Source: Deltaproteobacteria bacterium
GTDB lineage: Bacteria; Desulfobacterota; Desulfomonilia; UBA1062
NCBI GenBank assembly: GCA_029547045.1
Contig: JAKPQL010000083.1
Location: 3,425 to 67,424, forward strand
DNA: 64,000 bases
Reading direction: 5' to 3'
Below, piece by piece: positions 3,343 to 53,964 of this stretch. The notes under the pieces are model-generated. The model made no database searches and was not told the DNA's origin. It worked only from the letters and a program-made list of their open reading frames with translations. The translations under genes and the position numbers were made by a program. How positions within the stretch are numbered: the first letter of the stretch is position 1; each line of letters begins with the position of its first letter.

Positions 3343-3888
3343 TCACTCCGCCACTGTCTCGGCGTCGAACACCTCCCACTCCTCCGGGGCCTCGGATCCA
3401 TCGGCATCAATGGAGGCCCTGAGCCGCAGGGTCCTCAGGAGTCCGTCCAGGTCGCAGGGCTTGTCGGGGATCAGGTCCGGCAGGAAAACCTCCCGGCGCA
3501 ACCCCTTGCGCAGCGCGATCCCCCGGCACCTGCCCGTGAGCTGCGAGATGTCACGCAGCGGCCGGCACTCTCCCACGATGCAGATGGAGAACCTGGCACG
3601 GGGGAGGTCCCGCACCTCCATGGGCGCGGATCGGGGGTCCTTGTACACGGCATTGCGCGCGAAGACCCGGCATGCCTCCCACAGTGGGAGCAGAGCGAGC
3701 GTCGTGCCCACGCACCAGGTGCGATCCTGCCCGCAGGAGATGGTGACGAAGACCCCCTTTTCCTCCCTGAGCGCCGGGGACAGCCCGGGGTCCGGCAGGT
3801 CCTCGAGGATGCCCTGTTCCAGAAAATCCCGCACCGCGGCGCGCGCCTGCCGGATGAGCTCGCCTTTTTCGTGCTCTGTCAGCACCAT
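3343..3888 (-). CDS. AMMECR1-domain protein (AmmeMemoRadiSam protein A-like)
   Basis: ELIRQARAAV...LREEKGVFVTI...CVGT...NAVYKDPR...EVFLPD...EVFDAE. GGAGG RBS before ATG at 3888. Confidence 0.75.
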   Translation of the reverse strand: MVLTEHEKGELIRQARAAVRDFLEQGILEDLPDPGLSPALREEKGVFVTISCGQDRTWCVGTTLALLPLWEACRVFARNAVYKDPRSAPMEVRDLPRARFSICIVGECRPLRDISQLTGRCRGIALRKGLRREVFLPDLIPDKPCDLDGLLRTLRLRASIDADGSEAPEEWEVFDAETVAE

Positions 3889-19975: not shown

Positions 19976-20034
19976 GTGTCACGAATCTATTATTCGTATT
20001 TTATTTTGACACATTTTATCATTTTGTGTTACTG
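19976..20034 (+). promoter_or_regulatory. sigma70 promoter overlapped by candidate NikR half-sites
   Basis: AT-rich gap containing GTGTCAC (19976), TGACAC (20007) and GTGTTAC (20026), plus a TTGACA -35 at 20006. Confidence 0.5.
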
Positions 20035-20064
20035 CAATCTGAAATTCCCGGGAGGTTTCCACCT

Positions 20065-21090
20065 ATGCATATGGCCGATGCGTTATTATCCCCAACGGTG
20101 GGTGGAGTCATGTGGGCAGCTTCAGCCACCGGGATCGCGTACTGCTCGAAAAAGGTGAAGGAGCATCTGGACGAGCGGGCCGTGCCCCTCATGGGGGTGC
20201 TCGGGGCGTTCGTGTTCGCAGCCCAGATGATCAACTTCACCATCCCCGGCACCGGCTCCAGCGGCCACCTGGGCGGGGGCATGTTACTGGCGATCCTGCT
20301 GGGGCCGCATGCGGCCTTCCTGGTGATTGCCTCGGTCCTGGTGGTGCAGGCCCTGTTTTTTGCCGACGGGGGCCTGCTGGCGCTGGGCTGCAACATCTTC
20401 AACCTGGGCTTCTTCCCTGCCTTCATCGGATACCCACTGATCTACCGGAAGATCGTCACCGGCGATGTCACCAGGGCCAAACTCGTCATGGGTTCCACCC
20501 TGGCAGCCGTGGCGAGTCTTCAACTCGGGGCCCTCGGCGTGGTCATCGAGACCCTCGCCTCAGGCATTACAGAACTCCCGTTCTCCACCTTCGTGATGTT
20601 CATGCAACCCATCCACCTGGCCATCGGCCTCGTGGAAGGCATCGTCACCGCAGCGGTGGTTTCCTTTGTCTGGGAGGCGAACCCGGACATGCTCGGGGGA
20701 CTGCAGGGCAAGGCCCCTGCCGGCGTGATGCCGCGGAAGGCTATCCTGGCAGCCCTCCTCGCTGTGGCCGTAATCACCGGCGGGGTCATCTCCTGGTATG
20801 CATCCTCGCATCCCGACGGACTCGAATGGTCCATAGCAAAGGTCTCCGGAAAAGAGGAGCTCGAAAGCCCGGACGGCATCCACTCACAGCTCGCTTCCCT
20901 GCAGGACAAGATCGCATTCCTGCCGGATTACTCATTCAGGAACACCGCCGAAGCCGCAGAGTCTCTGCAGGGGGATGCGTCGTCCAGGCTCGGCACATCG
21001 GTGTCGGGCATCCTCGGGGGCTCCGTCGTTCTGTGCCTCGCCTTCCTGGTGGGGTTCATCCTGAAGAAATTCGCCGTCAAGAATGGCTGA
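20065..21090 (+). CDS. nikM: ECF nickel/cobalt transporter S component NikM/CbiM fused to PDGLE (NikN) domain
   Basis: N-terminal metal-binding MHMAD, SSGHLGG, C-terminal HPDGLEW. Confidence 0.88.
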   Translation: MHMADALLSPTVGGVMWAASATGIAYCSKKVKEHLDERAVPLMGVLGAFVFAAQMINFTIPGTGSSGHLGGGMLLAILLGPHAAFLVIASVLVVQALFFADGGLLALGCNIFNLGFFPAFIGYPLIYRKIVTGDVTRAKLVMGSTLAAVASLQLGALGVVIETLASGITELPFSTFVMFMQPIHLAIGLVEGIVTAAVVSFVWEANPDMLGGLQGKAPAGVMPRKAILAALLAVAVITGGVISWYASSHPDGLEWSIAKVSGKEELESPDGIHSQLASLQDKIAFLPDYSFRNTAEAAESLQGDASSRLGTSVSGILGGSVVLCLAFLVGFILKKFAVKNG

Positions 21091-21102
21091 TGGAACCATA
21101 CC

Positions 21103-21915
21103 GTGTCCGAGATCGCGCGTTCGCTCCATGAACTGAATGCCATGGACACCCTGGCCGGAAAGGACAGCCCTGTCCACCGCATCGACCCCAGGGCCAAAGT
21201 GATCACCTTTGTGGTTTTCGCAGGGTGCGTGGTCTCGTTCCGGAAATACGAGGTTTCGGCCCTCCTCCCCTATTTTCTCTTTCCAGCGGTCATCCTGCCC
21301 CTGGGACGCATACCGATGGGGTTTCTCGCCCGGAAGGTCCTGCTCGTGCTCCCCATCGCCGTGCTCATCGGGATCTTCAACCCCATCTTTGACCGGACAG
21401 TGCTCTTTTCCGTGGCCGGCCTGGGCGTGAGCGGAGGAATGGTGTCTTTCACCTCCATCCTCCTGCGGTTCGTTCTCACCGTGGTCGCAGCGCTCATGCT
21501 CGTCGCCGTGACGGGTTTCAACGGTATCTGTGCGACCCTGGAACGCTTCGGCGTACCCAGAGCCTTCAGCGTACAACTCATGATGCTCTATCGATACCTG
21601 TTCGTACTCACGGCAGAGGGTGTCCGCATGAGCCGCGCCCGGGAGCTCCGCTCGGTCGGCAGGGCCGGAACGGGCCTGAGGGACTTCAGCGCTCTGATCG
21701 GCCACCTCCTGCTGCGTACCTGGCACCGGGCCCAGCGCATCCACATGGCCATGCTCTCCCGGTGCTTCAGGGGGGAGTTCTTCCTGAGGAGACCGATGAG
21801 GCTGGGCAGCGCCGACATCGTATTCACCCTCGCATGGTCCTCGGCCTTCATTGTCATGCGCCTTGTCAACATGCCACAGGCTGTGGGACGGTTCCTCCTG
21901 GAGGTGTTCCCATAA
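21103..21915 (+). CDS. nikQ: ECF transporter T component NikQ/CbiQ
   Basis: SPVHRIDPRAK, YRYLFVL, RAQRIHMAMLSR. Confidence 0.88.
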   Translation: MSEIARSLHELNAMDTLAGKDSPVHRIDPRAKVITFVVFAGCVVSFRKYEVSALLPYFLFPAVILPLGRIPMGFLARKVLLVLPIAVLIGIFNPIFDRTVLFSVAGLGVSGGMVSFTSILLRFVLTVVAALMLVAVTGFNGICATLERFGVPRAFSVQLMMLYRYLFVLTAEGVRMSRARELRSVGRAGTGLRDFSALIGHLLLRTWHRAQRIHMAMLSRCFRGEFFLRRPMRLGSADIVFTLAWSSAFIVMRLVNMPQAVGRFLLEVFP

Positions 21916-22676
21916 GCCATCACATTGTCGAACTGAAGGGGCTGTCTCACGTGTATCCTGACGGGACAGAAGCGCTCTCGGACATCAGCATCCGTATAAC
22001 CCACGGCGAGTCCGTTGCCGTCGTGGGGGCCAACGGCGCGGGTAAGTCGACACTGCTCCTCCACCTCAACGGTTTTCTGAAGCCATCCTCGGGCAGCGTG
22101 CGCATCGGGGATTACCCCCTCACAAAGGAAACCCTTCAGGAAGTCAGACGAACCGTGGGCATGATCTTCCAGGACCCCGACGACCAGCTCTTTATGTCCA
22201 CCATCCAGGAAGACGTGGCCTTCGGACCGTTCAACCTCGGCCTGCCCCGTGACGAGGTCGATCAGAGGGTGGCTGATGCCCTCGAGCGCATGGGCATCAA
22301 CCATCTCAGGGACAAGCCGCCCTTCAGGCTCTCCGCCGGAGAGAAGCGCCGCGCCGCCATCGCAACGGTCCTATCCATGACCCCGGACATCATGGTGCTC
22401 GACGAGCCCACCACCGGCCTCGATCCCCTCGGCAGAAGGCAGATCATCACCATCCTGAGGGAGTTCACCCACACCAAGATCATCGCCACCCATGATCTGG
22501 ACCTGGTCCTTGACCTCTGCGCCAGGACCATCGTGCTCCATCAGGGCCGGATATGGGCCGACGGGCAGACTTGTGACATCTTCCGGGATGAGGCGCTCCT
22601 TCATGAATGCCATCTTGAGAAACCCTTGTCTATGCAGGGGTGCCCGGTATGCTCCGCAGGGACTCCTGAGGATTGA
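21912..22676 (+). CDS. nikO: ECF transporter ATPase NikO/CbiO; probable ATA start
   Basis: (I)SHHIVELKGLSHVYPDG, GANGAGKST, FQDPDDQLF, LSAGEKRR, LDEPT. GGAGGTG RBS before ATA at 21912. Confidence 0.88.
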   Translation: MSHHIVELKGLSHVYPDGTEALSDISIRITHGESVAVVGANGAGKSTLLLHLNGFLKPSSGSVRIGDYPLTKETLQEVRRTVGMIFQDPDDQLFMSTIQEDVAFGPFNLGLPRDEVDQRVADALERMGINHLRDKPPFRLSAGEKRRAAIATVLSMTPDIMVLDEPTTGLDPLGRRQIITILREFTHTKIIATHDLDLVLDLCARTIVLHQGRIWADGQTCDIFRDEALLHECHLEKPLSMQGCPVCSAGTPED

Positions 22677-22744: not shown

Positions 22745-23797
22745 ATGGACGCATCATCTCGCCGTGAGCCCTTCCGCATGCAGGACAGCGTCCAGGCCCT
22801 GCACAGCAGGCATCTGACATATCGCTGCACATTGGCAACCAGCCGGATATTCCTCGAATGGATCTCCTTCATGGCATGTTTCCTTGCCTGCCTGGGATTG
22901 CCAGTCAATGCAGGGGCGGCCTCGCTCCCCGGAACCGTCAGGGTGGACGGCGTCCTCATGACCGGCAGGACCACGAACACCACCACCTTTGACGGCGGGA
23001 CGAGCAGGCTCAGGTGGCCCATCGACGTGAAGACCCCGGGCCTCGGCATGAACCTGGGGCTCCTGGACTGCATGGACCTTGACCTGAGCGTCGTGGCCGA
23101 GCCGTGGGGGGCGAACAACAGCCCCATGCTCGACTGCGACTACCTGGACGAGGCCGAGTATGCGGGAAGACAGCCCCACGCGGGCGTGGACATCGCATCC
23201 ACCACCGAGCTGGACTCCAAGGCGCTGGTGATGGCCGTGAGCTCCCGCATCTTCCCGGTGCGCAGGGGAGCCCTGTCTGCCGGCATCTCTCTGGGGTACC
23301 GCCACGAGGAGTACGACTACCGGGGGTTCAACACCTCTCAGACCGGCTACGGCCCCTGGGCGTCCAGCTCCGCCGTGGTTGACGGCCCCTCTACGCTCTA
23401 CTCCGTGGACTACGACATATTCTCGGCCGGCATCGCCCTGAAGTCAGCCATCGAGGATGGCATCGAGATCACCTTCGAGGTCTTGGCCCTGCCGTATGTC
23501 TGCGCAAGCGACGAGGACGATCATCTGAGGCGGAACAGGGTCACCCGAACCAGCTCCACGGGCAGCGGCTACCAGACCTCCGTGCGGGGGTCCTTTACCG
23601 TCACGGACCACTGGGTCCTCGCATCGGAGTGCGCCTACGCCCGCATCGCCACGGACGGCCACCAGACCCAGTACTGGTACGGAGACGACCCCGCCACGCC
23701 CGGGTTCAACGATACGGGTTACAGCCTGAGCGGCATTGATGCGGAACTCGACCTGAAGACCTTCCGGGTCGCCATCGGCCTTGAGCGCCGCTTCTAG
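22745..23797 (+). CDS. Omptin-family outer-membrane protease
   Basis: SRLRW, MLDCDYL (DxD), DEDDHLRR (D-x-H), C-terminal Phe. Signal-like segment from ATG at 22871, which is the likelier start. Confidence 0.65.
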   Translation: MDASSRREPFRMQDSVQALHSRHLTYRCTLATSRIFLEWISFMACFLACLGLPVNAGAASLPGTVRVDGVLMTGRTTNTTTFDGGTSRLRWPIDVKTPGLGMNLGLLDCMDLDLSVVAEPWGANNSPMLDCDYLDEAEYAGRQPHAGVDIASTTELDSKALVMAVSSRIFPVRRGALSAGISLGYRHEEYDYRGFNTSQTGYGPWASSSAVVDGPSTLYSVDYDIFSAGIALKSAIEDGIEITFEVLALPYVCASDEDDHLRRNRVTRTSSTGSGYQTSVRGSFTVTDHWVLASECAYARIATDGHQTQYWYGDDPATPGFNDTGYSLSGIDAELDLKTFRVAIGLERRF

Positions 23798-25048: not shown

Positions 25049-26269
25049 CTAGGCGTACTTCTTGAGCTCGAACACCTTGCGGTCCTGGGTGGCCACGATG
25101 TGGTAGACCTTGTCCTGGGGCACGTAGATGTAGGGCACGTCGTCCTCGCGCCGGTAGAGGAAGTGCGACAGGATCATGCGGTTGACGGCCCGGTGCCCGA
25201 TGATCATGATGTTGTCGGGCTTCTGGTTCAGGAAGAAGGCCTTCTTGATGCCGATCTTGATCCGCTCCTTCATGGTGGCGTACCCCTCCCCTCCCGGATA
25301 CGCGTAGGTGTACTTGTTCGCCTTGCGGGCCGAGTGGATGTCCGGCTTGAACCGCTGGATCTCGTCATAGGTCATGCCCTCGCAGATGCCGGCATTGATC
25401 TCGTTGAATTCCCTGAGCGGCACGATCTCGCAGTCCTCCTGCTCGGCCCTGATGGCCTCCGCCGTCTGGATGGTGCGTTTCTTCTCGCTGGTGAAGATGT
25501 AGGCGAGCCTCTTCTTCCGGAAGAACCTCCCCAGGGCCCGGGCCTGTTCCCTGCCGCGCTCCGTGAGGTCCGGGTCTCCGCCGATGCGGTCCTCCACGTT
25601 GTACATGCTCTCTGTGTGCCGGATGAGATACAGGCTCTTCACCACGTCCGTGACCAGGCAGTCCCGGATGCGGGAGTACAGGGGCAGCTGGTCCTCGATC
25701 TGCTCGTTCACGATGCGGTTGTGCAGGGAATCCATGAGGATATAGTTCCGCTCCACGTGGAGCGGATTGTAGATCAGGCGGTAGTAGTCGATGCGCTTCT
25801 TGAACTCGGCAACGGCCTGCTCCTGGGTCAGCGAGCCGAACTCGGGCGAACGGACCTTGTGGCGGATGCTCAGGTCCACGATATCCTCGTCGTTGTTGAT
25901 GCACTCGATGTAGAGGATGGGGTGGTCCTGCAGGTGCTCTTCGATGAGCTGCCGACGGGACCGGCTCACGTTGGTGGCGTCCAGGATGGCCACCATGCCC
26001 CTGTTCCTCAAATAGGCCTTGGCCCGCTGGATGTTCATGAGGGCGAAATGCTTCCGCAGGTCCACGGCCTCGGTGTTCTCGGGGTTGTAGAACTCGGACA
26101 TCCACGTTTCGGTGGGGGCGTACCTCCTGCGGAGCTCGCCGTTGTTGTAGATCATGGTGGGGATGTCGTTCTTCTTGAAGATGTCCTGCAGCCGGTACGC
26201 GATGGTGGATTTGCCCTGGGACGGCAGGCCCACCATCACGATATAGAGTTTCTCGTCCTTGATGGTCAT
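25049..26269 (-). CDS. Bifunctional 6-phosphofructo-2-kinase/fructose-2,6-bisphosphatase-like protein
   Basis: Kinase: VMVGLPSQGKST, NNGELRR, ILDATN, FKKRI. His-phosphatase: RHTES, RIGGD, KRTIQTA, NEINAGICEGMTY, YPGGEGY, HRAV. Confidence 0.88.
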   Translation of the reverse strand: MTIKDEKLYIVMVGLPSQGKSTIAYRLQDIFKKNDIPTMIYNNGELRRRYAPTETWMSEFYNPENTEAVDLRKHFALMNIQRAKAYLRNRGMVAILDATNVSRSRRQLIEEHLQDHPILYIECINNDEDIVDLSIRHKVRSPEFGSLTQEQAVAEFKKRIDYYRLIYNPLHVERNYILMDSLHNRIVNEQIEDQLPLYSRIRDCLVTDVVKSLYLIRHTESMYNVEDRIGGDPDLTERGREQARALGRFFRKKRLAYIFTSEKKRTIQTAEAIRAEQEDCEIVPLREFNEINAGICEGMTYDEIQRFKPDIHSARKANKYTYAYPGGEGYATMKERIKIGIKKAFFLNQKPDNIMIIGHRAVNRMILSHFLYRREDDVPYIYVPQDKVYHIVATQDRKVFELKKYA

Positions 26270-26419
26270 TACCTGAAGATACCATCGGCGCAGGTGCAAG
26301 ACAAGGCATTTCCCCCGGCCTCACGGGCCCCTTGAACAAACCTCCGATGCCGGGTCCGCATGCCACCAAAACGGCTCCCGGGCTCCATCCGCCCCTGTTC
26401 AGGACAGGAGAAAAACACC

Positions 26420-26460: not shown

Positions 26461-26534
26461 TGGGGGATCGTCCAATGGTAAGACAGCGGACTCTGACTCC
26501 GTTTATCTAGGTTCGAATCCTAGTCCCCCAGCCA
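26461..26534 (+). tRNA. tRNA-Gln(CTG)
   Basis: TGGGGGA/TCCCCCA acceptor stem, loop CTCTGAC, GGTTCGAATCC, CCA end. Confidence 0.95.
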
Positions 26535-26542
26535 GTGAGTGC

Positions 26543-26618
26543 GGTCCCATCGTCTAGTGGCCTAGGACAACGGCCTCTCACGCCGTAAACAGGGGTTCGA
26601 TTCCCCTTGGGACTACCA
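26543..26618 (+). tRNA. tRNA-Glu(CTC)
   Basis: GGTCCCA/TGGGACT acceptor stem, loop CTCTCAC, GGTTCGATTCC, CCA end. Confidence 0.95.
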
Positions 26619-29038: not shown

Positions 29039-30625
29039 TTAGATCCCATCTCGAAGGGGAAAGCAACACACAAGGTCGGTCCCTCCCCCGGGGCGTGCGC
29101 GGATGTCCAGGGTCGCCTCGATCATTGAGGCGCGGTACTGCATGATGTTCAGCCCCATGCCCCTGCCGTGGCCCCTTGCCTGCCCCATGCCCACGCCGTT
29201 GTCGCTCACCCGCAGCTCGCACCCGGCGCCCCTGCGCTCGAGGCAGACCTCGATCCGGTCCGCGTGCCCGTGCTTGATGGCGTTATTCAGGGCTTCCTGC
29301 ACGATCCGGTACAGGTTCGTGGCCGCCTCGGTGTCCAGGATGTAGATGGGCTCCGCGCAGACGAACGAACACGAGACGCCGAAGAGTTTCTGCACGTTCT
29401 CGGCAAGCTTCCCGAGTGCGTGCATGAGACCGTCGGCCTGCAGTTCCACCGGGTTCAGCCCGCGGGCGAAGCCCCGGGTCATGGTGATGGCCTGGTCGAT
29501 GAGTTCGAGGATCTCGGCGATGTCCGAGGGTTCCAGCGGGATTCCCGACGCCACCTTCTTCTCCAGGACCTTCCCCATGAACCCGATGCCCGTGAGGTGC
29601 TGGGACAGGCTGTCGTGGAGATCCTGCCCGATCCTGCGCTGCTCGCGGTTGCTGATCTCGAGGATCTCCCGCTCCAGCTGCTTGCGCTTGGTGATGTCCC
29701 GCACGATGCCCAGCACCTCGTCGTTCCGGTACACCACCATACGGACCTCGAAATCCCTGGACACCCCGTCTATGGACAGGTGCTGCTCGTACACCTGGGG
29801 GTTGCCGGTCTCGAGGGCCCGTCTCACCGTGAGCATGCCCTGGTCCAGGAGCCTGCGGGGGATGAGTCCTTCCCTGTCGGCGAGCGTGTAGATGTTCCTG
29901 CCGATCATCTTCTTGCCCGGTTCCCGCAATGTGACGAAGGTCCCCTCGTGGAACCCCACCAGGGTCCCGTGGGTGTCCACCTGAAACATGAGGTCGGGTA
30001 TGGCGTTCAGCAGGGCCCGGTTCTTGAACTCGCTCTCCTTGAGCGCCTCCTCGGTGAAGTGCCGCTCCAGCACCATGCCGATGCGCTCGGCGATCACCCT
30101 CATGAGGCTCCGCTCCTCCTTGAGGAAGGGCCCCTCGTCCCTGTCTGGCTTCTGCTCGCGGTAGAAGACCTCCAGGGTCCCCCGCTTGAGGCCTCCCACC
30201 ATGATGTCCTGGGACTGCCTCCAGGGGGTCTCGGCGAAATCCGGGCTCTGCACCACCATGTCCCCCAGTCCGAGGCGGCAACAGGTGATCTCGGGGTACT
30301 GCCAGGCGTCCGGGATGATCTCCACGATCCGCTGGAGGATCTCGTCCAGGTCAAGGCCGTATTTCTCCACGATGCTGGAAATGCCGTAGAGGCAATTCAG
30401 CTCCTTGACCCGCTCCTTGAGTGCCTGGGCAAACTCGCCGTAGCGTTCCCAGTCCCTGTCCCTGGGGGACTCGGCCCTGCGCAGCCTCTGGATAGCCTTC
30501 TCGGCCCGGTGGAGCTCGGCGATGACCTCACGTCGAGGCTTCTCGAGGGATGTTCCCCTCGCCCTCTTCCCTGCGCTTTTCCTAACCTTCGGCCCGGTCG
30601 GTCCTGGTGGCTTCATATGATTCAT
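29039..30625 (-). CDS. Cytoplasmic GAF-like/PAS sensor histidine kinase (HisKA_3 type)
   Basis: EQRRIGQDLHDSLSQ, YRIVQEALNNAIKH, DNGVG, GMGL. PAS LNAIPDLMF. Start uncertain (30625 or 30616). Confidence 0.88.
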   Translation of the reverse strand: MNHMKPPGPTGPKVRKSAGKRARGTSLEKPRREVIAELHRAEKAIQRLRRAESPRDRDWERYGEFAQALKERVKELNCLYGISSIVEKYGLDLDEILQRIVEIIPDAWQYPEITCCRLGLGDMVVQSPDFAETPWRQSQDIMVGGLKRGTLEVFYREQKPDRDEGPFLKEERSLMRVIAERIGMVLERHFTEEALKESEFKNRALLNAIPDLMFQVDTHGTLVGFHEGTFVTLREPGKKMIGRNIYTLADREGLIPRRLLDQGMLTVRRALETGNPQVYEQHLSIDGVSRDFEVRMVVYRNDEVLGIVRDITKRKQLEREILEISNREQRRIGQDLHDSLSQHLTGIGFMGKVLEKKVASGIPLEPSDIAEILELIDQAITMTRGFARGLNPVELQADGLMHALGKLAENVQKLFGVSCSFVCAEPIYILDTEAATNLYRIVQEALNNAIKHGHADRIEVCLERRGAGCELRVSDNGVGMGQARGHGRGMGLNIMQYRASMIEATLDIRARPGGGTDLVCCFPLRDGI

Positions 30626-30786
30626 CCGTCCGTGTGATCCGGAACATGTATACCCTTCGGGCACCTCTCTGCAAGAACGGATCGAATCCCGTCCTGGTGC
30701 TGCTCCCATAGATGGGTGCACAAGGGCCCGGTCCTGTGGTATGATGGCCGTCGAACGAAACCAAACCACACCGAGGACGCAAGGCC

Positions 30787-32922
30787 ATGGCACAACCCGG
30801 AGACAAGGGACACGGCAGGGGCGAAGGCCCCCGGGAGGGTACGGCGGAATCCGCACGATCCGTGGATTTCATCCGCGCCATCATCAACGAGGAGCTCTCC
30901 ATGGGCAAGCACGGCGGCAGGGTACACACCCGCTTCCCACCGGAGCCCAACGGCTACCTCCACATCGGCCACGCCAAGTCCATCTGCCTGAACTTCGGCA
31001 TCGCGGCCGACTATAACGGTCTGTGCAACCTGCGGTTCGACGACACCAACCCTTCCAAGGAGGACCAGGAATACATCGACTCCATCATGGAGGATGTCAA
31101 GTGGTTGGGCTTCGACTGGGAAAACCGCCTCTACTACGCCTCGGACTACTTCGAGCAGACCTACCGCTTCGCCGAGGAGCTCATCAAAAAGGGCCTGGCA
31201 TACGTATGCGACCTGAGCGCCGAGGAGGTGCGGCAGTACCGGGGCACCCTCACCGAGGCGGGGAAGGACAGCCCGTACCGGAACCGCAGCGTCGAGGAGA
31301 ACCTCGACCTGTTCCGCCGCATGCGCTCGGGCGAGTTCCCGGACGGTTCCCGGACCCTGCGGGCAAAAATCGACATGGCATCGCCCAACCTGAACATGCG
31401 GGACCCGGTCATCTACAGGATCCTTCGGTCCACCCACCACCGCACAGGCGACGACTGGTGCATCTACCCCATGTACGACTATGCCCACCCCGTCTCCGAC
31501 TCCCTGGAGGAGATCACCCACTCCATCTGCACCCTTGAGTTCGAAGACCACCGGCCGCTGTACGACTGGTGCCTGGAGAAGCTCGGCATCTTCCGTTCCC
31601 GGCAGATCGAGTTCGCCCGGCTGAACCTCAGCTACACCCTGATGAGCAAGCGCAGGCTCCTGGAGCTCGTGCAGATGGGCATCGTGAGCGGATGGGACGA
31701 CCCGCGCATGCCCACCATCGCAGGGCTCCGCCGCAGGGGCTGCACCCCTGAAGCCATCAGGGCCTTCTGCGACCGCATCGGGGTGGCCAAGAAGGACAGC
31801 ATGGTGGACATGGCCCTCCTGGAGTTCCACATCCGCGAGGACCTGAACGTCCGAACGCCGCGGATCATGGCCGTGCTGGAGCCCCTCAAGGTAACCATCG
31901 AGAACTATCCCGAAGGCCAAACCGAAGAGTTCGACATCCCCTTCCACCCGGATGACCCCTCCATGGGGAGCCGCGCCGTCCCCTTCGGCAGGACCCTGTA
32001 CATCGAGCAGGACGATTTCATGGAGAACCCTCCACCGAAGTACTTCCGCCTCGCACCCGGACGCGAGGTCCGCCTGCGGGGGGCCTACTTCATCACCTGC
32101 ACGGGCGTGGTCAAAGACCCCCAGACCGGGCTCGTCACGGAGCTCCGCTGCATCTATGACCCGTCCACCAGGGGGGGGGACGCGCCCGACGGCCGCAAGG
32201 TGAAGGGCACCCTGCACTGGGTTTCGGCCGCGCACGCCGTGCCGGCCCAGGTCCGCCTCTACGAGAGGCTCTTCCTGGTGGAGAACATCGGCTCCGAGTG
32301 CGAGCGCACCGGCAGGGACTACAAGGACTTCCTGAACCCGGACTCGCTGCGCACCCTGAATGGCTGCATGCTGGAACCCTCCGTGAAGGGAGCGCCACCC
32401 CTGAGCCGGTACCAGTTCGAGCGCCAGGGCTACTTCTGCGTGGACAGCGCGGACTCGAAGCCCGACAGCCTGGTGTTCAACCGCACCGTGACGCTTCGCG
32501 ACTCGTGGGCGAAGGTTGAGAAGACCGCTCGCGTTACCAGGGAGACGCCGAAGGCTGCATCGAAAAAGTCCCCTGCAAAGGGGGCACCCGTGCCGGAGAT
32601 CACCTTCGACGACTTCGCCAGGCTCGACCTCAGGGTGGGAAGGGTCCTCGAAGCGGCACTGGTGGAGGGCGCGGACAAACTCGTGAAGCTGCTCGTGGAT
32701 GTGGGTGAAGACAGGCCCAGGCAGATCCTTGCAGGCATCCGGAGGGCATACCCCGACCCGGCAGCGCTCGTGGGAAAGCGTGTCGTGGTGGTGGCCAACC
32801 TCAAGCCGCGCGCGATGAAGTCCGGCACCTCCGAGGGCATGATCCTGGCGGGGGGCAGCGGAGACGACTGGCGGGTCTGCACCTTCGACGGCGAGCCCGA
32901 GCCGGGTGACAAGGTCTCCTGA
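30787..32922 (+). CDS. glnS: Glutamine--tRNA ligase with C-terminal Trbp111/MetRS-type tRNA-binding domain
   Basis: [27 protein letters not shown]. Tail [14 protein letters not shown]...ADKL...RQILAGI...VANLKPR...SEGMIL. Confidence 0.95.
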
Positions 32923-33078
32923 GCGGCACGCCGTTGCGGTGAAAATGTTCATCCGGGTCTTGTCCCGGGTGTTTTCATCAGTACTTTAGTATAGGTGGAA
33001 TGAACTGATGATACCCCACCATGGAGGAAGCCCTTGTCCCGAGCCCCTTCATGGGCTGTTCTGCTGGGTTCGGATGAC

Positions 33079-36000
33079 ATGAAGAAGAGAGAAGGCACAG
33101 CCCCTCCGCAGAAGAAACCCGAGAAGGAGACCCCGCGCCAGCGGGTGCTCCTCTCCCAGGTCATCGACTTCCTGCCCGACCCCACCTTTGCCATCGACCG
33201 GGCGGGCAGGGTCACCGTGTGGAACCGGGCCATGGAGGAGATGACCGGGGTGAAGGCCAGGGACATGGTGGGAAAGGGGGACTACGAGTACGCCGTCCCC
33301 TTTTACGGTGAGCGCCGCCCCATCCTCGCGGACCTGGTCCTGCACCCCGACCCGGAGCGGGAAAGGTCCTACTCTTCCCTGATCCGCCAGGGCGACAGCC
33401 TCTATGCCGAGACCATCGGATTGCCTTCCAGGCGGTTTCTCTGGGGAAAGGCGAGCCCCATCCGCGACAGGAGGGGAACCATCACGGGCGCCATCGAATC
33501 GATCCGCGACATCACGGACCACAAGCACATCGAGGAGACCGTCATCAAGAGCGAGGCCAGGTACCGGGACATCTTCGAGAACGTCTCCGACTACCTCTAC
33601 CTCCATGACCTCGACGGCGTGTTCATCGAGACGAACTTCGCGAACAAGAAGGAGTCGGGCTTCTCCGAGGAAGAGCTGAACAGCCTCTCCATCAGGGACC
33701 TGCTCCCGGACCGCCACCGGCACCGGTTCCAGAACTACATGAAGAACGTCGTGGACAAGGGGAGAGACGAGGGGTTCCTCACCATCGTCTTCAAGGACGG
33801 GCAGGAACGCGTCCTGGAGTACCGCAACTCGCTCATCACGGACAATCAGGGATGGCCCGTGGCGGTGCGTGGCTCCGCCCGGGACATCACCGCCAGGCTC
33901 AAGGCGCAGAAGGAGCTCAAAAGGGAGCGCGACTTCATCACCACCATCATACAGACCTCTCCCGCCTTCTATGTGGCGATGGATCCCGCGGGGAGGATCA
34001 TCCTCATGAACGAGGCCATGCTCGCCTCGCTCAACTACGGTCTCAAGGCCGTCCTCGGACGCGACTTCGTCACCACCCTCGTGCACCCCGAAGACCAAGC
34101 GTTCATCGCCCGGGGCATCTCCGACATGACCTCGTCAAGCCGATCGACCGTGCTCATGCTCAGGATGATCTCCCGCGACGGCAGGGACATGCTGGTCCAG
34201 TGGCAGTACAAGCCAGTCCACAAAACGGACGGCGGCATCGACTTCATCTTCGGCATGGGCATCGACATCACCGGCCAGAAACGGGCCGAGGAGCTGGGCC
34301 GGATCTCGGAGAAGAAGTTCCAGGCCGCCTTCCATGCCAGCGCCGATCCCATGGCCATCTTCGATCCTCCCACCGGGAGGATCATCGACGTCAACACCGC
34401 TTTTGTCACCTGGTCGGGCTACACCGCGGACGAGGCCATCGGCCGCACCACCATGGACCTGGACATCTGGCAGGACCCTTCCGACCGCGACCGGTACATC
34501 GGCAGGCTGCGCCTGGGGGAAACCGTGGACAGGGAGGAGGTGCGGCTCAGGAACAGGACCGGGGCCCAATACATAGTCATCCTGTCCGCTGCCATGGTGG
34601 AGGTGGAAGGCAGGTCCTACCTCTTCCTCACGCTCCATGACATCACCGATCTCCGCAATGCCCAGACGAGGCTGGCCAAGAGTGAGCGGCACTACCGGCT
34701 CCTGGCCGAGAATGCCTCGGACGTCATCTGGGTCCTCAACCCGGACCTGACCTACCGGTTCGTGAGCCCGTCCGTGGAGAACCTGAGGGGGTACACGGTG
34801 AAGGAGGTGCTCGGGCAGACCCTCAGAGACGTCCTTACCCCGGAATCGTACCGGAACGCCATGGAGCTCATGCAGCGGGAACGCCTCCAGGAGGTAAGCG
34901 GCCACCGGCACGGCCCCCAGTGGTCCACCACCGCCGAGTTCGAGATGACCCGCAGAGACGGCACCACCGTCTGGACCGAGGCGCGGCTGAGCGTGCTGTA
35001 TGACGACGAGGGAAAGGTTTCGGGCATCCTGGGCATCACCCGGGACATCACCCAGCGAAAACAGGCCGAGACCGCCCTGAGAGAGCGGCAGCGACAGATG
35101 GAGACCCTCATGGGCAACCTGCCCGGCATGGCGTACCGGTGCAGGAACGACGAGAACTGGACCATGGAGTTCGTCAGCCAGGGGTGCCTCGACATCACCG
35201 GATACTCGCCTGAAGACCTCGTGGGGAGCGCCCGGGTGTCCTATGCGGGACTCATCCACCCCGAAGACCGCGACCCGGTGTGGTCGCAGGTGCAGGAGGC
35301 GCTGTCCCGCAGGGAGCATTTCCGCCTCACCTACCGGATCATCCACCGGGACACCGGTGTGCGGTGGGTGTGGGAGCAGGGCACGGGAGTCCCCGATACG
35401 GACGGCAGGGTGGCGTTTCTGGAGGGATTCATCACCGACATCACAGAGCGCAAGCTCGCCGAGGAGGCGCTCAGGAAAAGCGAGGAGCGCTACCGGCTCC
35501 TGGCCGAGAACGTCAGGGACGTGATCTGGGTCCTGGACATGGACCTCCGCTACACTTACATCAGCCCATCGGTGGAGCGCATGCGAGGATTTACCGTGGA
35601 GGAGGCCATGGGAATGCCCCTGGACAAGGTCATGACTCCCGAATTCTACCAGCTCGCACTGACGGTCATCGGGGAGGAGCTGGAGCGCGAAAGGCATGGC
35701 CTCATCCACGACCCCTACTGGTCCCGGACCATCGAAGGGCAGATCTTGCACAAGGACGGGTCCTTCCTCTGGGTGGAGATAACCGCGACCTTCCTCCGGG
35801 ATGACGACGGGAACATCACCGGGATCCTGGGCGTCACCCGGGACATCAGCAAGCGCAGGCACGCCGAGGACGTACTCCAGCAGATCCGCTTCGCGGTGGA
35901 ACACCTGGGGGAGGAGGCCTTCTGGATCAGCAGGGAGGGACGCTTCATCTATGTGAACGAGGCTTCCTGCAGGGCCCTGGGCTGCACCCGCGAGGAACTG

Positions 36001-37782
36001 CTCTCCATGGGGGTGCAGGACATCGACCCCCTGTTCCAACCGGACCGCTGGCCCGAGCACTGGCAGGAGCTGAAGGAACGAGGATCTCTGGTCTTCGAGT
36101 CCATCCACCGGAGAAAGAACGGCTCCGAGTACCCGGTGGAGATCCAGGCCAACTTCCTGGAGTTCGGCGGCCAGGAATTCAACTGGGCCTTTGCCCGGGA
36201 CATCACGGAGCGCAAACACGCGGACGCCAAGCTCCGCGAGAGCGAGGAGCGGTTCCGGAGGATGGCCGAGGTCAGCCCGGAGGTCTTCTGGATGACCTCC
36301 CCGGACTGGTCCCGGGTCATCTACCTGAGCCCGGCCTTCGAGAAGATCTTCGGCTTTCCGGCTGAGGAGCTCGTCCAAAACCCGTCGGCATGCCTCGGCC
36401 TCATCCACGAGCAGGACAGAGACGCGGTGATCTCATTCTTCAGACGGAGCCAGGGCCCTGACGCGGTGTACGAGTTTCGCATCGTGCGGCCGGACGGCTC
36501 GGTGCGGTGGATCCGCAACAGGCGATCCTCCGTCCTTGACGAGCAGGGAAGGACCATCCTCCTCGTGGGCATCGCCGAGGACATCACAGAACGGGTGCAG
36601 GCAGAGGAGGAGCGCAAGGTATTCGAAGCCCGCCTGGCCAGATCCCAGAAGCTCGAGGCCATCGGGACCCTGGCGGGCGGCATCGCCCACGACTTCAACA
36701 ACATCCTGTCCGCGATCATCGGATACTCCGAGCTTGCCCAGGAGGAACTCCCGGCATCCAGCCCGGCCCACGCGAGCCTTGCAGAGGTCATCCGGGCTGG
36801 CGACAGGGCCAAGGACCTGGTGAGGCAGATCCTTACCTTCAGCCGCCAGATGGAGACCGAACGGAAACCGGTCCGTGTCCAGCTTATCGTGAAGGAGGTC
36901 ATGAAGCTGCTCCGGTCCTCCATACCGAGGACCATCACGATCAGAGACTCCGTGGATCCGTCTGCAGGACCGGTCTTTGCTGACCCCACCCAGATCCATC
37001 AGGTCATCATGAACCTGTGCACCAATGCCTACCATGCCATGCTCCCCGCTGGCGGCGAGCTCACCATCTCAGTGGATTCCGTGTTCCTGGATGCGCATTT
37101 CGCCTCCCAGCACCCCGAGCTCAGGGAGGGGGCCTATCTCCGGCTGGCCGTGCAGGACACCGGCACCGGTATGGACCCGGAGACCATGAAGCGCATATTC
37201 GACCCCTTCTTCACCACCAAGGAAAAGACAAAGGGCACAGGCCTCGGGCTGGCCACGGTGCACGGGATCGTCACGGACCTGGGCGGGTCGGTCATGGTGA
37301 CATCCACCGTGGGTAAGGGGAGCACCTTCGAGGTCTACCTGCCCGTGTCGAAAAAGCAGGAGGACGAGGACGAGGAACCCGAGGAAGAACTTGGCAAAGG
37401 CAGGGGTCAGACCATCCTCCTGGTGGATGACGAGGAGGCCATCCTCCACTTCACCGGAACCATGCTCGAACAGCTCGGATACCTGGTCATCAGGACGTCC
37501 TCCAGCCTGGAGGCCCTGGGCATGTTCCGATCCAACCCCCAGGGGATCGATCTGGTGATCACCGACCAGACCATGCCAGGCCTCACCGGCATGGCTCTGG
37601 CGTCCGAGATCATCAGGACAAGGCCCGGCATTCCCGTCATCCTCATGACCGGCTACAGCGAGACCGTCTCCCCCGAGGAAGCCCTTGCCCAGGGCATCGA
37701 GGAGTACATCGAGAAACCCTTCACCCGGAGCACCCTGGCCCGATCCGTGCAGCGGTGCCTCAGCGAAAAGAACCGGCCATGA
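33079..37782 (+). CDS. Multi-PAS (about 9) hybrid sensor histidine kinase with C-terminal receiver
   Basis: Repeated PAS/PAC units ending DIT, GGIAHDFNNIL, QVIMNLCTNA, PFFTTK, GTGLGL, receiver LLVDDE...ITDQTMP...KP. Confidence 0.92.
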   Translation: MKKREGTAPPQKKPEKETPRQRVLLSQVIDFLPDPTFAIDRAGRVTVWNRAMEEMTGVKARDMVGKGDYEYAVPFYGERRPILADLVLHPDPERERSYSSLIRQGDSLYAETIGLPSRRFLWGKASPIRDRRGTITGAIESIRDITDHKHIEETVIKSEARYRDIFENVSDYLYLHDLDGVFIETNFANKKESGFSEEELNSLSIRDLLPDRHRHRFQNYMKNVVDKGRDEGFLTIVFKDGQERVLEYRNSLITDNQGWPVAVRGSARDITARLKAQKELKRERDFITTIIQTSPAFYVAMDPAGRIILMNEAMLASLNYGLKAVLGRDFVTTLVHPEDQAFIARGISDMTSSSRSTVLMLRMISRDGRDMLVQWQYKPVHKTDGGIDFIFGMGIDITGQKRAEELGRISEKKFQAAFHASADPMAIFDPPTGRIIDVNTAFVTWSGYTADEAIGRTTMDLDIWQDPSDRDRYIGRLRLGETVDREEVRLRNRTGAQYIVILSAAMVEVEGRSYLFLTLHDITDLRNAQTRLAKSERHYRLLAENASDVIWVLNPDLTYRFVSPSVENLRGYTVKEVLGQTLRDVLTPESYRNAMELMQRERLQEVSGHRHGPQWSTTAEFEMTRRDGTTVWTEARLSVLYDDEGKVSGILGITRDITQRKQAETALRERQRQMETLMGNLPGMAYRCRNDENWTMEFVSQGCLDITGYSPEDLVGSARVSYAGLIHPEDRDPVWSQVQEALSRREHFRLTYRIIHRDTGVRWVWEQGTGVPDTDGRVAFLEGFITDITERKLAEEALRKSEERYRLLAENVRDVIWVLDMDLRYTYISPSVERMRGFTVEEAMGMPLDKVMTPEFYQLALTVIGEELERERHGLIHDPYWSRTIEGQILHKDGSFLWVEITATFLRDDDGNITGILGVTRDISKRRHAEDVLQQIRFAVEHLGEEAFWISREGRFIYVNEASCRALGCTREELLSMGVQDIDPLFQPDRWPEHWQELKERGSLVFESIHRRKNGSEYPVEIQANFLEFGGQEFNWAFARDITERKHADAKLRESEERFRRMAEVSPEVFWMTSPDWSRVIYLSPAFEKIFGFPAEELVQNPSACLGLIHEQDRDAVISFFRRSQGPDAVYEFRIVRPDGSVRWIRNRRSSVLDEQGRTILLVGIAEDITERVQAEEERKVFEARLARSQKLEAIGTLAGGIAHDFNNILSAIIGYSELAQEELPASSPAHASLAEVIRAGDRAKDLVRQILTFSRQMETERKPVRVQLIVKEVMKLLRSSIPRTITIRDSVDPSAGPVFADPTQIHQVIMNLCTNAYHAMLPAGGELTISVDSVFLDAHFASQHPELREGAYLRLAVQDTGTGMDPETMKRIFDPFFTTKEKTKGTGLGLATVHGIVTDLGGSVMVTSTVGKGSTFEVYLPVSKKQEDEDEEPEEELGKGRGQTILLVDDEEAILHFTGTMLEQLGYLVIRTSSSLEALGMFRSNPQGIDLVITDQTMPGLTGMALASEIIRTRPGIPVILMTGYSETVSPEEALAQGIEEYIEKPFTRSTLARSVQRCLSEKNRP

Positions 37783-52530: not shown

Positions 52531-53964
52531 ATGGATACGTTGAAGATTTTACTGTGTTCTTCGGAGGTGACACCCTTTGCCAAGACCGGCGGCCTGGCCG
52601 ATGTGAGCGCCGCCCTGCCGGCCCAGCTCAACCGTCAGGGACTGAACTGTTCCGTTGTCATGCCCCTGTACCGCGAGGTCAGGAACATGGACCTCCCGCT
52701 GAAACCCTGCACCGAGGTGGCGGTGGTCACGGGTGCAGGGATTTCCGAGGCCCGTATCTTCTCCTACAAGACCATGTACTTCATCTCCCACCCCCTCTTC
52801 TCGGACCGCACAGGCCTGTACTCCTACGCGGGACAGGACTACCCGGACAACCTCGAACGCTTCGCCTTCTTCTCCAGGGCCTGCGTGGAGCTGATCCGCT
52901 TCCTAGGGGATATCCAGGTCGTGCACTGCAACGACTGGCAGACGGCCCTGGTGCTGCCCTACCTGAAGGATGCGGGCCTCGACCACGTGGCAAGCCTGTT
53001 CACCATCCACAACCTCGCCTACCAGGGCATCTTCGACGCCATCCTCTGGTCCATGCTCTTCCTGCCCCACGAGTTCTTCCATCCCGACTGCATGGAGTTC
53101 TTCGGCAGGATCAACGTCATGAAGGCAGGCATCGTGTTCTCGGACGCGGTGAACACCGTCAGCCCCACCTATGCCCGCGAGATCCAGACCGGCGAGTTCG
53201 GCAGCGGCCTGGACGGCCTTCTGCGAGCCGTTTCACACAAGCTCTCCGGCATCACCAACGGCATCGACGATGTCATCTGGGACCCGGCCACGGACCCCCT
53301 CATCGCCAGGAACTATTCGCGCCACGACATGACGGGCAAGCAGGACTGCAAGCGCGCGCTTCTGGAGGAGTTCTCCCTCCCCAGAGACGATGGACCGGTC
53401 TTCGGACTCATCAGCCGCCTGGTGGAGCAGAAGGGGATCGACTGCGTGCTGGATGCCGTGCCGGCCATGGCCGGCATGGGCGCCAGGATCGTGGTGCTGG
53501 GCAACGGCAACCCGGTCTTTGAGCGCCGCCTAAAAGACCTCCGGCAGGAGCTGCCCGGCCACGTGGGCATCCACATCGGGTTCGATGAGGCGAAGGCCCA
53601 TGCCATCGAGGCCGGGGCCGACTTCTTCCTCATGCCGTCGAGGTTCGAGCCCTGCGGGCTGAACCAGATGATCTCCATGCGCTACGGGACCATCCCCATC
53701 GTCACCGGGGTCGGCGGGCTGCGGGACACGGTCAGAGCCCTGGGCGAGGGAGAGAGGCCGTACGGGCTCCGCGTGGCATCCCCGAACACCCCTTGTCTCC
53801 TGGACACCGTCACGCAGGCCTGCCGGCTCTCCCATGACGACCCGGGTCTCCTCCTCGCCATGCGGCTCACCGCCATGGAGCAGGATGTGAGCTGGGATAC
53901 GCCCGCGCGCCAGTACGCCCACATCTACCGCAATTGCAAAATTTTGAAAGAAAGAACAAGATAA
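52531..53964 (+). CDS. glgA: Glycogen synthase
   Basis: KTGGLADV, HCNDWQT, TIHNLAYQG, SRLVEQKG, PSRFEPCGLNQ. Confidence 0.95.
   Translation: MDTLKILLCSSEVTPFAKTGGLADVSAALPAQLNRQGLNCSVVMPLYREVRNMDLPLKPCTEVAVVTGAGISEARIFSYKTMYFISHPLFSDRTGLYSYAGQDYPDNLERFAFFSRACVELIRFLGDIQVVHCNDWQTALVLPYLKDAGLDHVASLFTIHNLAYQGIFDAILWSMLFLPHEFFHPDCMEFFGRINVMKAGIVFSDAVNTVSPTYAREIQTGEFGSGLDGLLRAVSHKLSGITNGIDDVIWDPATDPLIARNYSRHDMTGKQDCKRALLEEFSLPRDDGPVFGLISRLVEQKGIDCVLDAVPAMAGMGARIVVLGNGNPVFERRLKDLRQELPGHVGIHIGFDEAKAHAIEAGADFFLMPSRFEPCGLNQMISMRYGTIPIVTGVGGLRDTVRALGEGERPYGLRVASPNTPCLLDTVTQACRLSHDDPGLLLAMRLTAMEQDVSWDTPARQYAHIYRNCKILKERTR

Follow-up and report, generated by a model that had tools for sequence, protein, structure and literature searches.

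In textbooks, fructose 2,6-bisphosphate (F2,6BP) figures as the master regulator with which eukaryotes switch between glycolysis and gluconeogenesis. A 64,000-nucleotide stretch of contig JAKPQL010000083.1 (the window; positions 3,425 to 67,424 of the forward strand, assembly GCA_029547045.1), which originates from a Deltaproteobacteria bacterium, contains a gene resembling that of the enzyme which makes and breaks this compound, the bifunctional 6-phosphofructo-2-kinase/fructose-2,6-bisphosphatase (PFK-2/FBPase-2; PFKFB in mammals). This locus raises the question of whether the bacterium encodes an intact enzyme of this kind and, if so, whether the gene is a recent import or an established part of the metabolism of its host. 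In its introduction, PMC9721465 describes F2,6BP signalling as eukaryotic, as had an earlier annotation made from the letters of the window (the sequence-only reading), and cites Rider et al. 2004 for an exception in Desulfovibrio desulfuricans. A bacterial homologue has thus been in print since 2004, and some members of the group are named PFK-2/FBPase-2 by NCBI. The sequence-only reading had proposed an undescribed bacterial F2,6BP switch; an F2,6BP switch remains the best-supported reading, but 'undescribed' is too strong in view of the D. desulfuricans exception and the NCBI names. Its statement that no bacterial role has been defined agrees with the literature searched (subscription papers not covered), in which no characterisation was found. 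The protein of the window (the query) belongs to a large, old and uncharacterised prokaryotic clade.

Domains, active sites and predicted fold of the protein

The gene is a minus-strand open reading frame (ORF) encoding 406 amino acids (aa) followed by a stop codon (Table 1), and no second copy is found in the 2.97-Mb host assembly, which is 92% complete. A longer alternative start, a TTG at 26299, is present upstream of the ATG at 26269; the ATG is the likely start because homologues begin ~5-7 residues ahead of the conserved KLYIVMVGLP. An N-terminal 6PF2K kinase domain is followed in the same chain by a His_Phos_1 phosphatase domain, which is the order found in eukaryotic PFKFB, and each domain scores ~100 bits over its own Pfam cut-off. 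In a phmmer search against all PDB chains, PFKFB2, PFKFB1, PFKFB3 and rat testis PFKFB were matched over query residues 8-391 (E 4.8e-65 to 1.4e-58), and isolated FBPase-2 domains were listed after these full-length matches. Scores of this size lie well outside what chance would give. The motifs on which the sequence-only reading had based its assignment (MVGLPSQGK, DATN, RHTESMYNVEDRIGGD, KRTIQTA, NEINAGICEGMTY, YPGGEGY and HRAV) are all present in the translation, as are the two substitutions that it had pointed out, namely SQ for AR ahead of GK (GLPSQGK) and RHT for RHG (RHTES). Its call of two domains in the eukaryotic order is in agreement with Pfam and with the end-to-end alignment to PFKFB1-4.

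The query shares 31-35% identity with PFKFB1-4 over ~390 residues and retains the Walker A loop, DATN, the basic residues of the fructose 6-phosphate (F6P) site, the His-Glu-His phosphatase triad and the 6-phosphate-binding residues. It carries RHT, HRAV and GLPSQGKS where PFKFB has RHG, HQAV and GLPARGKT. It has no N- or C-terminal regulatory extension, whereas proteins on the eukaryote side of the tree described below are 432-1069 aa long around their aligned cores. Stand-alone histidine phosphatases (PhoE/YhfR, PspA and CobC) share with the C-terminal domain of the query the fold and the RH...H core, but contain no fused kinase domain. A classification of the query as a stand-alone phosphatase of the CobC, PspA or dPGM type was rejected because the equivalog cut-offs were not reached: TIGR03162 (CobC) scored 92 against a cut-off of 162.9 and NF045917 (PspA) 73.2 against 350, the GpmB and dPGM models were far under their cut-offs, and all NCBIfam matches were confined to residues ~212-387.

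Conservation was assessed in an alignment of 159 sequences, comprising 82 members of the prokaryotic clade, 6 giant-virus-like sequences and 71 eukaryote-side sequences. The 82 clade members are identical at all 26 of the catalytic and substrate-binding positions considered, in the kinase domain (G14, P16, G19, K20, R47, R48, R72, D97, N100, R105, R106, K138, R159 and Y163) as well as in the phosphatase domain (R217, H218, N224, R265, E290, Y301, R315, K319, Y330, R336, H359 and R364). These positions align with the PFKFB2/PFKFB1 motifs GLPARGKT, YRR, DATN..RERR, KRI..Y, RHGES, KRTIQTA, NEIDAGVCE, R...KY.YRYP.GESY and HQAV.R, and are conserved less strictly among the eukaryote-side proteins, individual members of which depart from the pattern at most of them. 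For the ATP-, F6P- and F2,6BP-binding roles of these positions, we assume those known from the mammalian structural literature. R47, R48, R72, R105, R106, K138, R159 and Y163 are presumably the basic and aromatic F6P-site residues of the kinase domain, and N224, R265, Y301, R315, K319, Y330, R336 and R364, which align to KRTIQTA, MTY, R..DKY and GESY of PFKFB, are taken to hold the 6-phosphate and the sugar of F2,6BP in the phosphatase site. Variation within the clade is limited to a few of the tabulated positions, among them position 99 (T65, S12 and A5, versus T in 67/71 on the eukaryote side) and position 21 (S78 and T4, versus T41 and S29). The 406-aa protein is thus a genuine, full-length member of the PFK-2/FBPase-2 family in which both active sites are complete.

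An AlphaFold model based on a 47-row alignment has a predicted local distance difference test score (pLDDT) of 92.8 and a predicted TM-score (pTM) of 0.86. The top 26 rows of a Foldseek search with this model are all PFKFB (best E, 3.8e-35). With VIA, the model gave Z values of 31-34 over 387-393 aligned residues against PFKFB (mammalian reference structures: PDB 1bif, 1k6m, 2axn, 5hr5 and 5htk). The phosphatase domain alone gave a Z of 27.0 against rat liver FBPase-2 (1fbt; root-mean-square deviation (rmsd) 1.6 A over 187 residues), and the C-terminal domain gave Z values of 23-25 (rmsd 2.0-2.2 A) against stand-alone histidine phosphatases. Both predicted domain folds are those of PFKFB.

Distribution, phylogeny and inheritance of the gene

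A homologue, either full-length or truncated by a contig end, was found in 21 of the 24 other genomes of the host family (61-97% identity), and the three genomes with no match are 92%, 88% and 77% complete. In 16 genomes of the sister family (f2), the phosphatase half alone was matched, at 23-36% identity; these proteins are thus stand-alone histidine phosphatases. In total, 51 of 401 sampled genomes of the phylum contain PF01591 above its cut-off, with the carriers bunched in certain families, for example 6/6 (f1), 6/6 (f18) and 5/7 (f26) against 0/7 (f2). A word-indexed protein search returned 2195 proteins at E up to 1e-10, and the best 120 of these are all 395-460 aa long, contain both domains and come from prokaryotic sources, labelled Desulfomonilia, Smithella or 'Deltaproteobacteria' where named. 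NCBI product names vary among 'PFK-2/FBPase-2', 'histidine phosphatase family protein' and 'bifunctional nucleoside/nucleotide kinase/histidine phosphatase'. When the 50%-identity representatives were searched exhaustively, 12474 matches were obtained at an E limit of 0.001, of which 2026 remained at 1e-10 and 291 at 1e-30. In the GTDB species collection, 393 stretches match two peptide patterns derived from a 5-sequence alignment, with relatives encoded in 313 prokaryotic species genomes.

Locus labels and neighbourhood counts given here and below cover the best 80 of these 313 relatives. The labels include Desulfomonilia, Syntrophaceae/Smithella, Desulfobacteraceae, Desulfatiglandales, Desulfobulbia, Desulfarculaceae and Desulfovibrio/Halodesulfovibrio, together with five anammox genomes (L056, L062, L064, L068 and L069; Candidatus Scalindua, Scalinduaceae and Brocadiaceae) at 55-58% identity. 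One of the latter (L056) falls among Desulfobacterales sequences in the tree, a placement suggestive of transfer from one bacterium to another. The NCBI labels 'uncultured Bacteriovoracaceae' and 'Deltaproteobacteria' mapped to Myxococcota look automatic and were not relied on. The D. desulfuricans homologue matches the query in protein type and in phylum; the query lineage is labelled Desulfomonilia/Syntrophaceae, and Desulfovibrio and Halodesulfovibrio sequences sit inside the query clade at 42-50% identity. This clade is wider than Desulfovibrio, extending to Syntrophia/Smithella, Desulfobacteria, Desulfobulbia, Desulfarculia and anammox Scalindua/Brocadiaceae; the 'sporadic Desulfovibrio homologues' mentioned in the sequence-only reading therefore understated a single clade found in 313 species genomes. 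An intact enzyme, predicted to make and break F2,6BP, is stably maintained under selection in hundreds of species of anaerobic bacteria, among them sulfate reducers, syntrophs (Smithella) and anammox Scalindua.

For phylogenetic analysis, 231 candidates with a match were sampled, 159 of which cover both domains. The tree contained 109 rows, namely the query, 27 locus sequences (77 full-length sequences thinned at 72% identity) and 81 protein representatives. In the FastTree result, the query, the 27 locus sequences, P0061, P0123 (a protein from a Desulfovibrio metagenome-assembled genome (MAG)), P0124 and P0125 lie together, set apart from the remaining rows by a branch that has 100% local support. 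Sequences from fish, bird, insects, an acoel, choanoflagellates, Pygsuia, a red alga and an MMETSP protist lie on the other side, at the base of which are six AT-rich marine clusters of ~400 aa (P0138, P0152, P0170, P0185, P0197 and P0247). An IQ-TREE (LG+G4) analysis of 59 rows hand-picked from the 109 gave the same split with 100% SH-aLRT support. In both trees, the prokaryotic proteins are monophyletic and not nested in any sampled eukaryotic group, so that the phylogeny against eukaryotic PFKFB proposed in the sequence-only reading speaks against a source among the sampled eukaryotes. P0125 (405 aa), the deepest branch of the prokaryotic clade, is labelled as a Nanobdellota (DPANN) archaeon MAG and lies on a 30.9-kb contig; it may be real or a binning error.

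The marine, giant-virus-like clusters resemble the query in their minimal length (~400-411 aa) and carry the same invariant catalytic positions, but are only 30-33% identical to it and branch on the eukaryote side. A relative 64% identical to P0197 is located on a giant-virus MAG contig (IMG/VR; L099:2661-3869), and on the strength of this one locus the basal marine grade is probably viral or eukaryote-associated. In a phosphatase-domain tree, the root fell between the prokaryotic clade (97%) and the group of giant-virus-like and eukaryote-side sequences (90%), a rooting that is biased by its outgroup of seven long-branched stand-alone histidine phosphatases picked by similarity to the query. 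The tree therefore provides only a hint at the position of the root, with the prokaryotic clade as sister to the eukaryotic and giant-virus-like enzymes.

It is conceivable, but doubtful, that the fused PFK-2/FBPase-2 is ancestral in sulfate-reducing and syntrophic anaerobes of the Desulfobacterota type and that the eukaryotic and giant-virus enzymes descended from such a bacterium, for example from a deltaproteobacterial syntrophic partner. Partners of this kind figure in the syntrophy and E3 models of eukaryogenesis, as treated in section 2.1 of PMC11793985. Under such an origin, F2,6BP signalling would be no eukaryotic invention. One very early transfer from a stem eukaryote to bacteria is equally compatible with the trees. 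If bacteria do use F2,6BP, the source of the eukaryotic regulator would come into question.

A quite different history is a recent import of the gene from a eukaryote at a tRNA locus, which would make it a sporadic passenger with no integrated role in its host. tRNA genes are common integration sites, and the tRNA-Gln and tRNA-Glu genes that the sequence-only reading had placed beside the gene do exist, as a pair divergent from the coding sequence (CDS) and 190 nt upstream of it. The PFK-2/FBPase-2 family is best known from eukaryotes, and a few bacterial assemblies contain separate, eukaryote-type copies, such as the Myxococcota-labelled cluster P0154, which is nested on the eukaryote side apart from the query clade, and a 779-aa protein in G137, a genome of the same phylum as the host. 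However, the same tRNA pair flanks the gene in 7/7 congeneric loci, the proteins of which are 82-97% identical to the query, and is thus a set of conserved syntenic neighbours and not an insertion mark. The composition of the gene (GC 0.60; GC content at third codon positions (GC3) 0.94) is native, with GC3 values of 0.72-0.90 in six neighbouring genes. Furthermore, the presence of the gene across the host family, the phylum and the GTDB species collection, the position of the clade outside every sampled eukaryotic group, and a search of viral contigs by pattern, in which no relative of the query was found, all argue against import. The synteny, the composition and the empty viral-contig search rule out a recent transfer into this genome, so that the horizontal acquisition proposed in the sequence-only reading did not hold up and an import of this kind is extremely improbable. 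Vertical inheritance is favoured because the gene is carried by most genomes of the family, its tRNA synteny is complete and its GC3 is like that of its neighbours. The gene is accordingly of long standing in many Desulfobacterota-type anaerobes, in which it has been passed on vertically.

The 779-aa protein of G137 (L107:222-2558; contig C51, 73% GC) has its best matches, at ~440 bits, to the eukaryote-side clusters P0162 and P0175 and not to the query clade. It could represent a separate transfer or contamination.

Association with the FBPase/PFK node and proposed function

The host genome encodes one class I fructose-1,6-bisphosphatase (FBPase; NF006778, 477.6 bits, cut-off 368) and two genes of the phosphofructokinase (PFK) family, one of which belongs to the long ATP-PFK equivalog (NF005301; 661 bits versus a cut-off of 400). 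No match to GlpX or FBPase_3 was found in the 92% complete host assembly. Across the 401 phylum genomes, class I FBPase (PF00316) is present in 50/51 genomes with PFK-2 and in 166/350 without it, a contrast that is overstated in that the counts treat related genomes as independent. The single PFK-2-positive genome without class I FBPase is 80% complete. By family, class I FBPase occurs in all 11 PFK-2-positive families and in 13 of the 27 other itemised families. Sister family f2 lacks both PFK-2 (0/7) and class I FBPase (0/7) and possesses long ATP-PFK (7/7). Long ATP-PFK was found in 33/51 PFK-2-positive and 138/350 PFK-2-negative genomes, and was rejected as a co-evolving partner on the basis of this weaker association.

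Genes for glycolytic enzymes are found close to PFK-2 in a number of the 80 loci. Pyruvate kinase lies upstream on the same strand in 8, and glyceraldehyde-3-phosphate dehydrogenase (GAPDH) lies divergently upstream in 10. Phosphoglycerate kinase (PGK) and PGM are nearby in 3 loci each, a PfkB kinase in 1, and MalQ directly upstream in 1. Smithella/Syntrophaceae loci have gap(-pgk) divergent from a row of four genes, namely pyk, FMN reductase, PFK-2 and DUF1330, and in two of these loci (L052:877-4614 and L035:857-4218) the four are co-directional with gaps of ~7-100 nt. This cluster looks like a glycolytic operon that includes PFK-2. The enzyme thus goes together with class I FBPase across genomes and with clustered glycolytic genes at individual loci. 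FBPase is located 3-6 kb from PFK-2 on the same strand in five genomes belonging to families f36 and f71; an FBPase-PFK-2 operon was rejected in these cases because opposite-strand HGD-D, Metallophos, radical SAM, Bax1-I and M48 peptidase genes intervene. As to storage carbohydrate, titles in reference lists point to polyglucose storage in Desulfovibrio and Desulfobulbus. The glgA noted in the sequence-only reading was recovered as a Glyco_transf_5 match (window ~52543-53226, E 6.4e-74), 27 kb from PFK-2.

From these data, we infer that the enzyme makes and degrades F2,6BP, which we regard as quite likely. The N-terminal P-loop domain would transfer the gamma-phosphate of ATP to the 2-hydroxyl of F6P, and the C-terminal histidine-phosphatase domain would strip the 2-phosphate via phospho-His218, with assistance from E290 and H359. 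The level of F2,6BP in the cell would report the supply of hexose phosphate and ATP at the node between F6P and fructose 1,6-bisphosphate. That the protein is a true bifunctional F6P 2-kinase/F2,6-bisphosphatase, reduced to a minimal catalytic core and gating the FBPase/PFK node, is likely. Its foremost candidate target would be the class I FBPase of the host, through active-site inhibition as in eukaryotes, although the chances that this enzyme is the main target are about even; one of the two host PFKs may perhaps be activated too. The effect would be to prevent a futile cycle between glycogen-forming gluconeogenic growth and the glycolytic degradation of stored glucan. If bacteria do use F2,6BP, this would explain how energy-starved, polyglucose-storing anaerobes escape such cycling, and with candidate targets named in the same genome such use becomes directly testable.

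Several points weigh against this proposal, in addition to the non-independence of the genomes counted. Class I FBPase is common in genomes without PFK-2, and the association with long ATP-PFK is the weaker one. FBPase and PFK-2 are on different contigs in the host genome, FBPase was found within 3 kb of PFK-2 in none of the 80 loci, and the genes between the two in f36 and f71 are unrelated. In the predicted structure, the whole-chain rmsd to mammalian PFKFB crystals is 15.5-16.9 A, as the monomer model packs the two domains differently, and the quaternary structure and domain cross-talk of the query may differ from those of mammalian PFKFB. No NCBIfam equivalog model reaches its cut-off for the 406-aa query. 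The query has Thr at position 219, next to the catalytic His, which may lower phosphatase activity, and Arg at position 360, where eukaryotes mostly have Gln. Bacterial class I FBPase is held to respond to F2,6BP, a point for which the literature search gave no source. That search, which did not cover subscription papers and is no proof of absence, found no enzyme activity, F2,6BP measurement or effector test for a bacterial member. Metatranscriptome contigs that match the gene (see below) offer weak support for expression, as the libraries may carry DNA.

Some of these points would also fit an enzyme with the same fold and chemistry acting on a different substrate pair, such as another ketose phosphate, or a metabolic enzyme rather than a maker and breaker of a signal. 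The lack of an assay in the literature searched, the packing of the domains in the model, the varied NCBI names and the differences from the eukaryotic consensus at positions 219 and 360, beside the two catalytic histidines, all leave room for it. However, every aligned F6P- and F2,6BP-contact position, with the roles assumed above, is conserved in 82/82 clade members, which is tighter than on the eukaryote side, and both the neighbourhoods and the co-occurrence point to the glycolysis/gluconeogenesis node. A different substrate pair, which the sequence-only reading had offered as an alternative, is therefore not favoured and appears unlikely.

Loss of one activity would be another way to account for T219: the exchange of Gly, present in 71/71 eukaryote-side sequences, for Thr might cripple the phosphatase and leave mainly a kinase, and the converse, a dead kinase, is also conceivable. 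There is precedent for this in unicellular eukaryotes, many of which reportedly carry isoforms that have become monofunctional through substitutions (Michels and Rigden, 2006). In the prokaryotic clade, however, R217, H218, N224, R265, E290, H359 and all the 6-phosphate-binding positions are invariant, which therefore argues for purifying selection on a working phosphatase, and the kinase motifs are likewise intact. Position 219 toggles among G39, T35 and A8 within this one conserved clade with no other site decaying, and because of this distribution RHT reads as a common clade variant at a non-catalytic position and not as decay. Position 360 likewise alternates between R57 and Q25 in the clade, versus Q in 60/71 on the eukaryote side. 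A functionally monofunctional protein is accordingly very unlikely, and a bifunctional F2,6BP enzyme remains the preferred reading.

Neighbouring genes, transcripts and other features of the window

The features of the locus are listed in Table 1. A gene for a protein with a response-regulator receiver and TPR, directly downstream and convergent with the CDS, has a homologue in the same arrangement in 19 of the 80 related loci, down to 56% identity (one weak match at 30% was dropped). It is a conserved neighbour in the lineage of the query, and is regarded as context only, being at most a candidate regulator of PFK-2/FBPase-2. In the 190-nt region upstream of the gene, an Rfam search for RNA elements and riboswitches at E up to 0.1 gave the two tRNAs only. 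A scan for promoter and terminator consensus sequences was uninformative, its only matches being on the plus strand inside the CDS and at about the level of chance.

Table 1. Coordinates of the PFK-2/FBPase-2 gene, its predicted functional sites and its immediate neighbours in the window
Feature	Position	Strand	Evidence and remarks
CDS, bifunctional 6-phosphofructo-2-kinase/fructose-2,6-bisphosphatase homologue, 406 aa	25049..26269	-	ORF list, translation, Pfam, PDB sequence search
Stop codon of the CDS	25049-25051	-	
Kinase (6PF2K) domain, residues 4-195	25685..26260	-	PF01591, E 3.3e-38, 131.7 bits, cut-off 27
Fructose-2,6-bisphosphatase (His_Phos_1) domain, residues 213-401	25067..25633	-	PF00300, E 1.9e-38, 132.5 bits, cut-off 21.7
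Walker A loop GLPSQGKS, residues 14-21	26207..26230	-	Translation; G14, P16, G19 and K20 invariant; SQ where most relatives have AR
RHT motif, R217-H218-T219	25613..25621	-	H218, predicted phospho-acceptor His; R217 and H218 in 82/82
Codon of H359, second catalytic His (HRAV), predicted role	25193..25195	-	Invariant in 159/159 aligned sequences
tRNA-Gln(ctg)	26461-26534	+	ARAGORN, Rfam
tRNA-Glu(ctc)	26543-26618	+	ARAGORN, Rfam
Response-regulator receiver and TPR protein, convergent with the CDS, 12 nt between stop codons	24011..25036	+	Pfam

Metatranscriptome contigs from two studies, of an anaerobic digester and of activated sludge, match pieces spanning 25623-26339 with 96-100% identity and a depth of ~3. 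Small word shares were found in 15 RNA runs, four of which were aligned to the locus; in one of these (X6) it is mainly the tRNAs that are covered, and no habitat claim was drawn. The region coding for the Walker A loop contains an imperfect inverted repeat of 18 nt (26198-26240). Strand-switch joints seen in the RNA contigs at 26180-26269 were rejected as biology, being best explained by this repeat, and are probably an assembly artefact.

Three further genes or ORFs of the window may be mentioned. A hybrid sensor kinase of 1582 aa (33034-37782, plus strand) contains up to eight matched PAS-domain stretches, HisKA, HATPase_c and a receiver. An ORF of 776 aa (30622-32952, minus strand), which is overlapped by a 711-aa ORF on the other strand, has no Pfam match at E up to 1e-5. 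A 350-aa protein (22745-23797, plus strand) shows a weak match to the Omptin family (E 9.5e-10) and adjoins a CbiM/ABC cobalt-transport cluster at 20026-22676.

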